From the UHGV virus genome UHGV-1662791: a stretch of 21,799 nucleotides of DNA; one strand, written 5' to 3'. A model generated the notes under the pieces. The model did not search any database, was not told where the DNA came from, and was given only the letters and a program-made list of their open reading frames with translations. The stretch comes from a virus. Below, in pieces: positions 4,472-4,596 of this stretch (its first letter is position 1; each line of letters opens with the position of its first letter). A program made the position numbers and the translations under genes.

Positions 4472-4497
4472 GAACCAGTTCCCACTGCCAGAGGGGA

Positions 4498-4557
4498 GGG
4501 GCGGGTCAAATCCCTGTGACCTGACGTCTTCCGGACTGCCCGCCCCATCGTTTTTTT
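4498..4557 (+). terminator. GC-rich inverted repeat plus T7 tract; terminator-like and/or part of the cos region
   Basis: GGGGCGGG (4498-4505) and CCCGCCCC (4539-4546) are reverse complements separated by 33 nt, followed by TTTTTTT (4551-4557). Lies in the HNH-TerS gap, where HK97-like genomes carry cos. Confidence 0.3.
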
Positions 4558-4596
4558 ATACCCGCGAAAAATGAAATTTAACCAGGAGTGCCGCAT

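Follow-up and report, generated by a model that had tools for sequence, protein, structure and literature searches.

The window analysed here, which is the whole stretch of 21,799 nucleotides, carries genes for an HNH endonuclease, the small terminase subunit (TerS), the large terminase subunit (TerL), a portal, an S78 protease and an HK97-fold capsid protein, in this order and all six detected by Pfam (Table 1). Upstream lie genes for a Q antiterminator (1033-1722), a holin, Rz and Bor, and the phage has a contractile tail with a sheath protein gene. The HNH protein is 36% identical to HK97 gp74 over 69 amino acids (E 6e-11), TerL is 26% identical to HK97 gp2 over 522 amino acids (E 3e-30), and the relatives of TerS are named "phage terminase small subunit P27 family" in their sources; a Foldseek comparison of the TerS model with the PDB gave nothing significant, and phmmer found no match for TerS among PDB sequences. 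The longest reading frame for the HNH gene begins at TTG 4022, and its likely start is ATG 4121, giving 116 amino acids, which is favoured by the annotation of Shigella phage SfI, by a GGAG at 4112-4115 and by a typical N-terminus beginning MPSRIPKACRVRGC. The HNH coding sequence of SfI has 351 nt, and the SfI cos-F primer matches the start region of the window's HNH gene with four mismatches.

Between the HNH stop codon (TAA, 4469-4471, as read from the sequence) and the TerS start codon (ATG at 4597) there is a gap of 125 nt, 4472-4596. It contains GAGGGGAGGGGCGGGTC at 4491-4507, as well as GGGGCGGG at 4498-4505, whose exact reverse complement, CCCGCCCC, is found at 4539-4546; a run of seven T (4551-4557) begins 4 nt (ATCG) 3′ of this right arm. 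The coordinates of the repeat arms and the gap had been given correctly in the first-pass annotation of this DNA, and the T run and the flanking genes are as stated there. Searches for other elements found no Rfam match in the whole window at the gathering threshold or in 4300-4800 at E up to 1, no tRNAs in the window, and no sigma-70-like promoter in a promoter scan of 3200-5400. Further upstream, a strong terminator-like hairpin on the minus strand (3975-4004, a 13-bp stem followed by CTGTTTGATT) sits in the 380-bp gap between bor (3302-3643, minus strand) and the HNH gene, that is, upstream of bor in bor's own direction.

Table 1. Features in and around the gap between the HNH and small terminase genes; offsets count from the predicted top-strand nick
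Feature	Position	Strand	Remarks
HNH endonuclease gene (gp74-like packaging accessory nuclease)	4121..4471	+	Pfam PF01844, E 2.8e-16
Non-conserved linker after the HNH stop codon, outside the probable cos	4472..4493		unrelated sequence in its place in close relatives and satellites
Putative left cos element, G-tract plus TCAAATC (GGGAGGGGCGGGTCAAATC)	4494..4512	+	conserved in 80 close relatives
Candidate portable cos core	4494..4576 (83 bp)	+	-53 to +30 from the top-strand nick; alone in PICI-like islands
Spacer of variable sequence and fixed length	4513..4532		many substitutions; 20 nt in 77 of 77 relatives
Conserved GGAC	4533..4536	+	predicted bottom-strand nick 4536/4537
Predicted cohesive end 5′-TGCCCGCCCC-3′, probably a 10-nt 3′ overhang	4537..4546	+	match to SfI run-off; top-strand nick 4546/4547
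T7 tract, A/T-rich segment between the cut and the TerS site	4551..4557	+	+5 to +11
Putative small-terminase binding site ACCCGCGAAAAATGAAA	4560..4576	+	+14 to +30, location of the HK97 TerS site
terS ribosome-binding site AGGAG	4584-4588	+	8 nt before ATG 4597, read from sequence
Small terminase subunit, P27 family	4597..5082	+	Pfam PF05119 (Terminase_4), E 1e-20; start at +51 from the cut
Large terminase subunit (ATPase and nuclease)	5096..6829	+	Pfam PF03354 and PF20441

Megablast against phage records shows 97% identity between the window and the Shigella phages SfII, SfI, SfIV and SfV throughout the packaging, head and tail module. The ends of SfI virion DNA have been sequenced directly with primers in the HNH and terS genes, and the virion reads lacked 10 nt, 5′-TGCCCGCCCC-3′, that are present in the prophage and constitute the cohesive end (PMC3636060). 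The SfI 10-mer is identical in the window, the linear SfI record ends at window position 4546 and restarts at 4547, and a comparison of the SfI right end with the window shows a single difference within the 83-bp core, at spacer base 4513 (C/T). The end positions are experimentally established in this near-identical phage, and the position of the cos is already known, since it was mapped in SfI, described for SfV and belongs to the well-studied HK97 type. Work on SfV by Allison et al. in 2002 is reportedly part of this background. We consider it very probable that the gap is the cos site of an SfI/SfV-like, HK97-type prophage; the element in the window is known from its sequence and may be defective.

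The published SfI ends also bear on the polarity of the overhang. Both run-off reads stop short, leaving a gap and no overlap, so both 5′ ends would be recessed and, we infer, the SfI-type ends are 3′ overhangs. This agrees with HK97, to which passages of two papers attribute 10-nt 3′ overhangs (PMC9410871, PMC11331095), and with phiE125 and phi644-2, which have ten-base 3′ extensions with a right end of 5′-CGCCCGCTTC-3′ (PMC2920897). Furthermore, the linear records of HK97 and phiE125 can be aligned at their ends to the window without gaps and give the same cut position, reading GAC/CGCCGCCAAA/G in HK97, GAC/CGCCCGCTTC/G in phiE125 and GAC/TGCCCGCCCC/A in the window; the cuts marked here for HK97 and phiE125 are the ends of the linear records, which agree with the published overhangs. 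GAC is found directly 5′ of the 10-nt overhang in HK97 (TGAC/CGCCGCCAAA), phiE125 (GGAC/CGCCCGCTTC), Klebsiella phi6.3 and Psymv2. A full-text literature search for the overhang sequences returned only unrelated papers.

A common plan emerges when the HNH-terS gaps are aligned for phages whose TerS is 88% to 42% identical to that of the window, together with HK97. In the window, GGGAGGGGCGGGTCAAATC is followed by 20 nt and then by GGAC/TGCCCGCCCC/ATCGTTTTTTTATACCCGCGAAAAATGAAA; the corresponding arrangement is GGAC/CGCCGCCTCA/GTCAATTTTTTATACCCGCGAAA in Klebsiella phi6.3 and GGAC/CGCCCGCTTC/GTCGAATTTTCACGCCCGCGAAA in phiE125, and in HK97 it is GGGGGGGGATCAAATC, then TGAC/CGCCGCCAAA/GTTTGAATTTAACGCTAACCCGATTTTTTT. 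The HK97 GGGGGGGGATCAAATC and the TCAAATC of the window both end 34 nt before the top-strand nick, and a G-tract is also found in the phiE125, Moraxella and Psychrobacter lineages. On the other side of the cut, the position of the T7 tract is A/T-rich in every lineage (AATTTTT, ATTTTTT, GAATTTA), and the T run itself is not kept. The distance from the cut to terS is similar as well, the gene starting at +50 in HK97 and +51 in the window; the phiE125 record annotates gp1 from +46, and TerS similarity begins at +55. The arrangement of Vibrio phage P2 is another (locus L212, 535-901; TerS 51% identical): there the HNH gene adjoins terS with 6 nt between them, and the packaging site must be elsewhere or inside a gene.

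The fine structure of the site was read from 80 IMG/VR relatives with TerS 98-99% identical. The segment 4533-4596 is essentially invariant across these 80 while the flanks vary, and within the site conservation is lowest at 4513-4532. Of 77 relatives, 75 have TGCCCGCCCC as the 10-mer and two have CGCCCGCCCC. The ACCCGCGAAAAATGAAA block, which is invariant in the 80 relatives, occupies the place at which HK97 TerS binds; the HK97 protein contacts +15 to +29 (CTAACCCGATTTTTT) and requires a C:G pair at 21 and an A-tract (PMC11331095). The motif CCCGCGAAA lies at +15 to +23 in both the window and phiE125, in the same register, and the TerS of phiE125 is 50% identical. In the Burkholderia clade (phiE125-like, loci L216-L259), the spacer left of GGGAC holds a palindrome at about -32 to -15 from the cut that covaries on both sides (GGAGG..CCTCC, GGAAGG..CCTTC, GAGGGC..GCCCTC); the spacer of the window has no equivalent of it.

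In addition, we built a cos profile from HK97, phiE125, Mcat17 and Psymv2 only, gapless, anchored on the cut and containing no SfV-clade sequence. This independent profile has one match in the 21.8-kb window, at 4488-4579 (E 9.5e-8, no gaps), and its cut column falls at 4546/4547, in agreement with the SfI experiment. A fuller profile that includes SfV-type seeds likewise has a single match in the window, 4488-4580, and is found upstream of terS in IMG/VR loci of the SfV-like (80/80), phiE125-like (74/77) and HK97-like (69/80) kinds. A degenerate cut-site pattern matches the window once, against 0.01 matches expected. The match of the whole 4488-4580 segment to the cos sites of other phages is far beyond chance. 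We discarded a scan of 596 Gb of contigs for GCCCGC-N17-CCCGCGAAA as too loose: among the 120 matches listed, the profile matched only three loci (L016, L043 and L124), and the remainder were judged, from their flanks, to be chance matches in GC-rich genomes. The lambda cosN 12-mer GGGCGGCGACCT gave only chance-level matches in the window and none in the gap.

Copies of the site outside prophages delimit it further. With the 301 bp of 4400-4700 as query, 1166 of 5426 complete E. coli genomes gave a match; 1110 of them have the full HNH-cos-terS arrangement, which puts the prophage family in roughly a fifth of these genomes (1110/5426). Some matches cover 4494-4576 alone and lie at the distal end of islands of about 10.5 kb between cspD/yljB and clpS; examples are NZ_CP024855, at about 354.7-365.3 kb (locus L003, also L215), and NZ_CM135151 (locus L004). 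The copies of the core are 95-98% identical, stand at 6001-6083 of both L003 and L004 and have unrelated flanks; the block starts at the first G of the G-tract (-53) and runs to +30, where the stretch corresponding to the HK97 TerS site also ends. The islands encode an integrase, a small HTH regulator, an Icd-like protein, a DUF927 primase, an SSB, a capsid protein (with a ClpP-like protease fused to it in some, a decoration protein beside it in others), and a Nu1-like or DUF1441 protein; HNH, TerL and portal genes are absent from them. This gene plan is that of the Gram-negative PICI satellites (PMC6092414). A 216-bp query joining satellite flank and cos is at least 80% covered in 320 of the 5426 complete E. 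coli genomes (about 6%). Since satellites need the terminase of a helper for cutting and packaging, this independent retention is an argument for the 83 bp of 4494-4576 as the functional core of the cos, to which the G-tract and the +14 to +30 stretch would both contribute.

Some of these satellites have a further peculiarity. One type (L004) has a lambda-type cosN-like 12-mer, GGGCGGCGATCT, at 4780-4791, just upstream of the Nu1-like gene, and its SfV-type cos lies 1.2 kb downstream of that 12-mer, so that a single element carries two cos families; the stretch with both reaches a coverage of at least 80% in 152 genomes. In sibling satellites (L455 at 560, L456 at 802) the lambda cosN is perfect and there is no SfV-type cos. 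The PICI papers cited here (PMC6092414, PMC6739421) describe only lambda/phi80-type cos sites. In a very small sample, a second copy of the cos core was found in one of 10 satellite-bearing genomes, against an overall prophage frequency of about 20%, and thus the satellite and the SfV-like prophage show no obvious enrichment for residing together. Tentatively, and with somewhat more doubt than confidence, we suggest that the 83-bp block could be a self-sufficient portable signal that E. coli PICI-like satellites have captured, packageable by two unrelated kinds of helper, HNH-dependent SfV-like and lambdoid phages, and that G-tract-TCAAATC could be a cosQ-like element read by TerL/HNH and not by TerS. 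Its two-helper part draws on about 150 genomes with the core within 1.3 kb of the cosN-like 12-mer.

The inverted repeat had been put forward together with the cos, along with a possible second role as a terminator. On such a reading, the GGGGCGGG/CCCGCCCC pair and the T7 run would form an intrinsic terminator downstream of the HNH gene, whether or not the cos is there too. We regard this as improbable. A hairpin of eight G-C pairs is predicted at 4498-4546 (-24.3 kcal/mol) with the T7 run after it, but the arms are 33 nt apart, where a short loop would be expected, and ATCG intervenes between the stem and the T run. A consensus terminator scan found no plus-strand site in the gap, there is no Rfam match at the site, and RNA of the gap does not fold better than shuffled sequence (z-score -0.78). 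Nor is the pairing maintained: the left arm is GGGGGAGG in L136, L179 and the Citrobacter locus L016 with the right arm unchanged, and one satellite has CCAGCCCC as its right arm next to an unaltered left arm, neither change being compensated, while only AATTTTT or ATTTTTT is left of the T run in the copies of ST64B, Klebsiella and the satellites. Complementarity between the G-tract and the cut site exceeds controls in the SfV clade only (7.4 vs 4.8 in shuffles); against cross-pairings or shuffles, the sister clades give 4.3 vs 4.1 for phiE125, 4.8 vs 4.4 for Moraxella and 3.3 vs 3.9 for HK97. Moreover, the site lies between the lysis and head genes, downstream of Q, where late transcription, by analogy with the lambda late operon, should read through. 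The double role as a terminator is not supported, given the 33-nt loop, the 4 nt before the T run, the lack of covariation and the place inside what would be a Q-antiterminated late operon.

What survives of the repeat is its presence and the position of its right arm, which makes up eight of the 10 bases of the cohesive end; the left arm is part of the separately conserved G-tract element. As a functional unit it does not stand, with its pairing unmaintained, and the 8-bp repeat is no more than chance: when the gap was shuffled 1000 times with its dinucleotides preserved, 8% of the shuffles had a perfect repeat of at least 8 bp with a loop of at most 60 nt, as did 30 of 434 real segments of 125 nt from the 21.8-kb sequence. 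The most fitting reading is that the repeat arises secondarily from two GC-rich functional elements with opposite strand bias. We had also considered the G-tract and the C-rich overhang as inverted copies of one protein-binding motif, and dropped the idea because the complementarity is confined to the SfV clade.

Even if the cos is in the gap, the cut might be at 4529/4530 and not at 4546/4547. GenBank origins differ within this phage family, standing at window position 4530 for SfV and SfIV, 4547 for SfI and 4472 for SfII, and the mapped cohesive end agrees with the SfI origin only. A cut at 4529/4530 would account for the linear SfV record (U82619.2), which ends in ...GACGTCT and starts with TCCGGACTGC, that is, at window position 4530, 17 bp to the left of 4547, and for the identical start of SfIV. 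Nevertheless, we find it very unlikely, as direct end sequencing gave TGCCCGCCCC for SfI in a paper that calls the SfV mechanism "postulated" (PMC3636060), the SfIV sequence comes from a prophage assembly that was made linear by convention, the mapped ends of HK97 and phiE125/phi644-2 align to 4536/4546 and not to 4529, and the cut would fall within 4513-4532, the least conserved stretch. Least credible of all, and close to dismissible, is the reading that the features are incidental, with a pac site elsewhere or a defective remnant that has no functional packaging site: the repeat by itself is indeed not statistically unusual, but 4533-4596 is invariant across 80 relatives while its flanks vary, the site matches the mapped cos of three phage lineages, and satellites keep the core on its own. 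The proposal of a cos between the HNH and TerS genes is borne out by the identical SfI 10-mer, by the alignment of HK97 and phiE125 at the same cut and by the satellites that carry the core alone.

For the cos reading, the following course of packaging can be proposed. During lytic growth, the terminase (a P27-family TerS with an HK97-like TerL), aided by the adjacent HNH endonuclease, would act on concatemers, with TerS most likely bound immediately to the right of the cut, near +14 to +30 (4560-4576). Two nicks 10 nt apart, attributed by homology to the TerL nuclease and the HNH protein and placed in the top strand at 4546/4547 and in the bottom strand at 4536/4537, would produce 10-nt 3′ cohesive ends, with 5′-TGCCCGCCCC-3′ on the right end. 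Packaging would then proceed rightward from 4547, with terS entering first, and stop at the next cos, such that the virion chromosome would have window positions 1-4546 (Q, lysis genes, bor, HNH and G-tract) at its right end and the part from 4547 on at its left. For this phage, we infer where TerS binds, what part the G-tract plays and that HNH is required; for HK97, passages of two papers report that gp74 stimulates cos cleavage (PMC11331095, PMC9410871). The left half of the site (G-tract-TCAAATC and GAC/CGCC) is common to HK97, and the right half tracks the TerS family. With TerL and HNH homologous to those of HK97, this pattern would suit nucleases that read the left half and the cut site and a TerS that reads the right half. 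The left element, 4494-4512, is possibly a cosQ-like site or a recognition site for TerL/HNH.

Known cos systems resemble this site to different degrees. The cos of SfI, SfV, SfII and SfIV (Sun et al. 2013, PMC3636060; Jakhetia et al. 2013, PMC3851460) is the same element, with an identical 10-nt end and the same HNH-cos-terS order, although the 22 nt after the HNH stop codon differ from the window in SfV and ST64B. In HK97, as in the window, the HNH and terS genes flank the cos, a GC-rich overhang of 10 nt comes directly after GAC, and an ACCCG plus A/T-tract motif stands beyond an A/T-rich tract, the HNH and TerL proteins being homologous. In contrast, the HK97 overhang shares only four of 10 bases with that of the window, ACCCG is at +18 to +22 in HK97 and at +14 to +18 in the window, the two TerS proteins have no sequence similarity, and HK97 is a siphovirus, whereas the phage in the window has a contractile tail. 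The Burkholderia phages phiE125, phi1026b and phi644-2 have 10-base 3′ extensions (PMC2920897), and seven of the 10 overhang bases are those of the window; phiE125 also has GGAC before the overhang and xTCG at +1 to +4. However, its left element is GGGGAGGGGGG-GAAAAAGTC where the window has ...TCAAATC, its spacer has its own covarying palindrome, and its hosts and the rest of its genome are unrelated to those of the window.

More distant parallels concern the overall layout and the satellites. The lambda cos (cosQ-cosN-cosB) would be analogous in having a nicking site, a TerS-binding region on the packaged side and an end-of-packaging element on the opposite side, and both cos types have been captured by satellites (for lambda, PMC6092414, PMC6739421). 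Lambda differs in its 12-nt 5′ overhangs, its Nu1-type TerS and its lack of an HNH protein; the TerS of the window is PF05119 and not Phage_Nu1. In Gram-positive bacteria, the island SaPIbov5 carries the HNH-dependent cos of its helpers, the cos phages phi12 and phiSLT, according to a passage in PMC6739421 that cites Quiles-Puchalt et al. 2014. There a chromosomal island has copied its cos from a phage of the HNH type, and the E. coli islands, known here from their sequences, appear to parallel it with the SfV-type cos.

What the comparison adds to the known cos is a layout of HK97-type cos sites at base level and across the family, together with a minimal site as marked out naturally by satellites and a candidate left-hand element, G-tract-TCAAATC, that is common to HK97. 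The satellite capture of the SfV-type cos and the G-tract element shared with HK97 go beyond the published accounts cited here, and the plan of the site could guide cos-plasmid and in vitro cleavage work. As the first-pass annotation had anticipated, locating the cos defines the ends of the virion genome: the position fixes them for this prophage family, the correct coordinate origin is 4547, and 1-4546 and 4547-21799 of the window belong to opposite ends.
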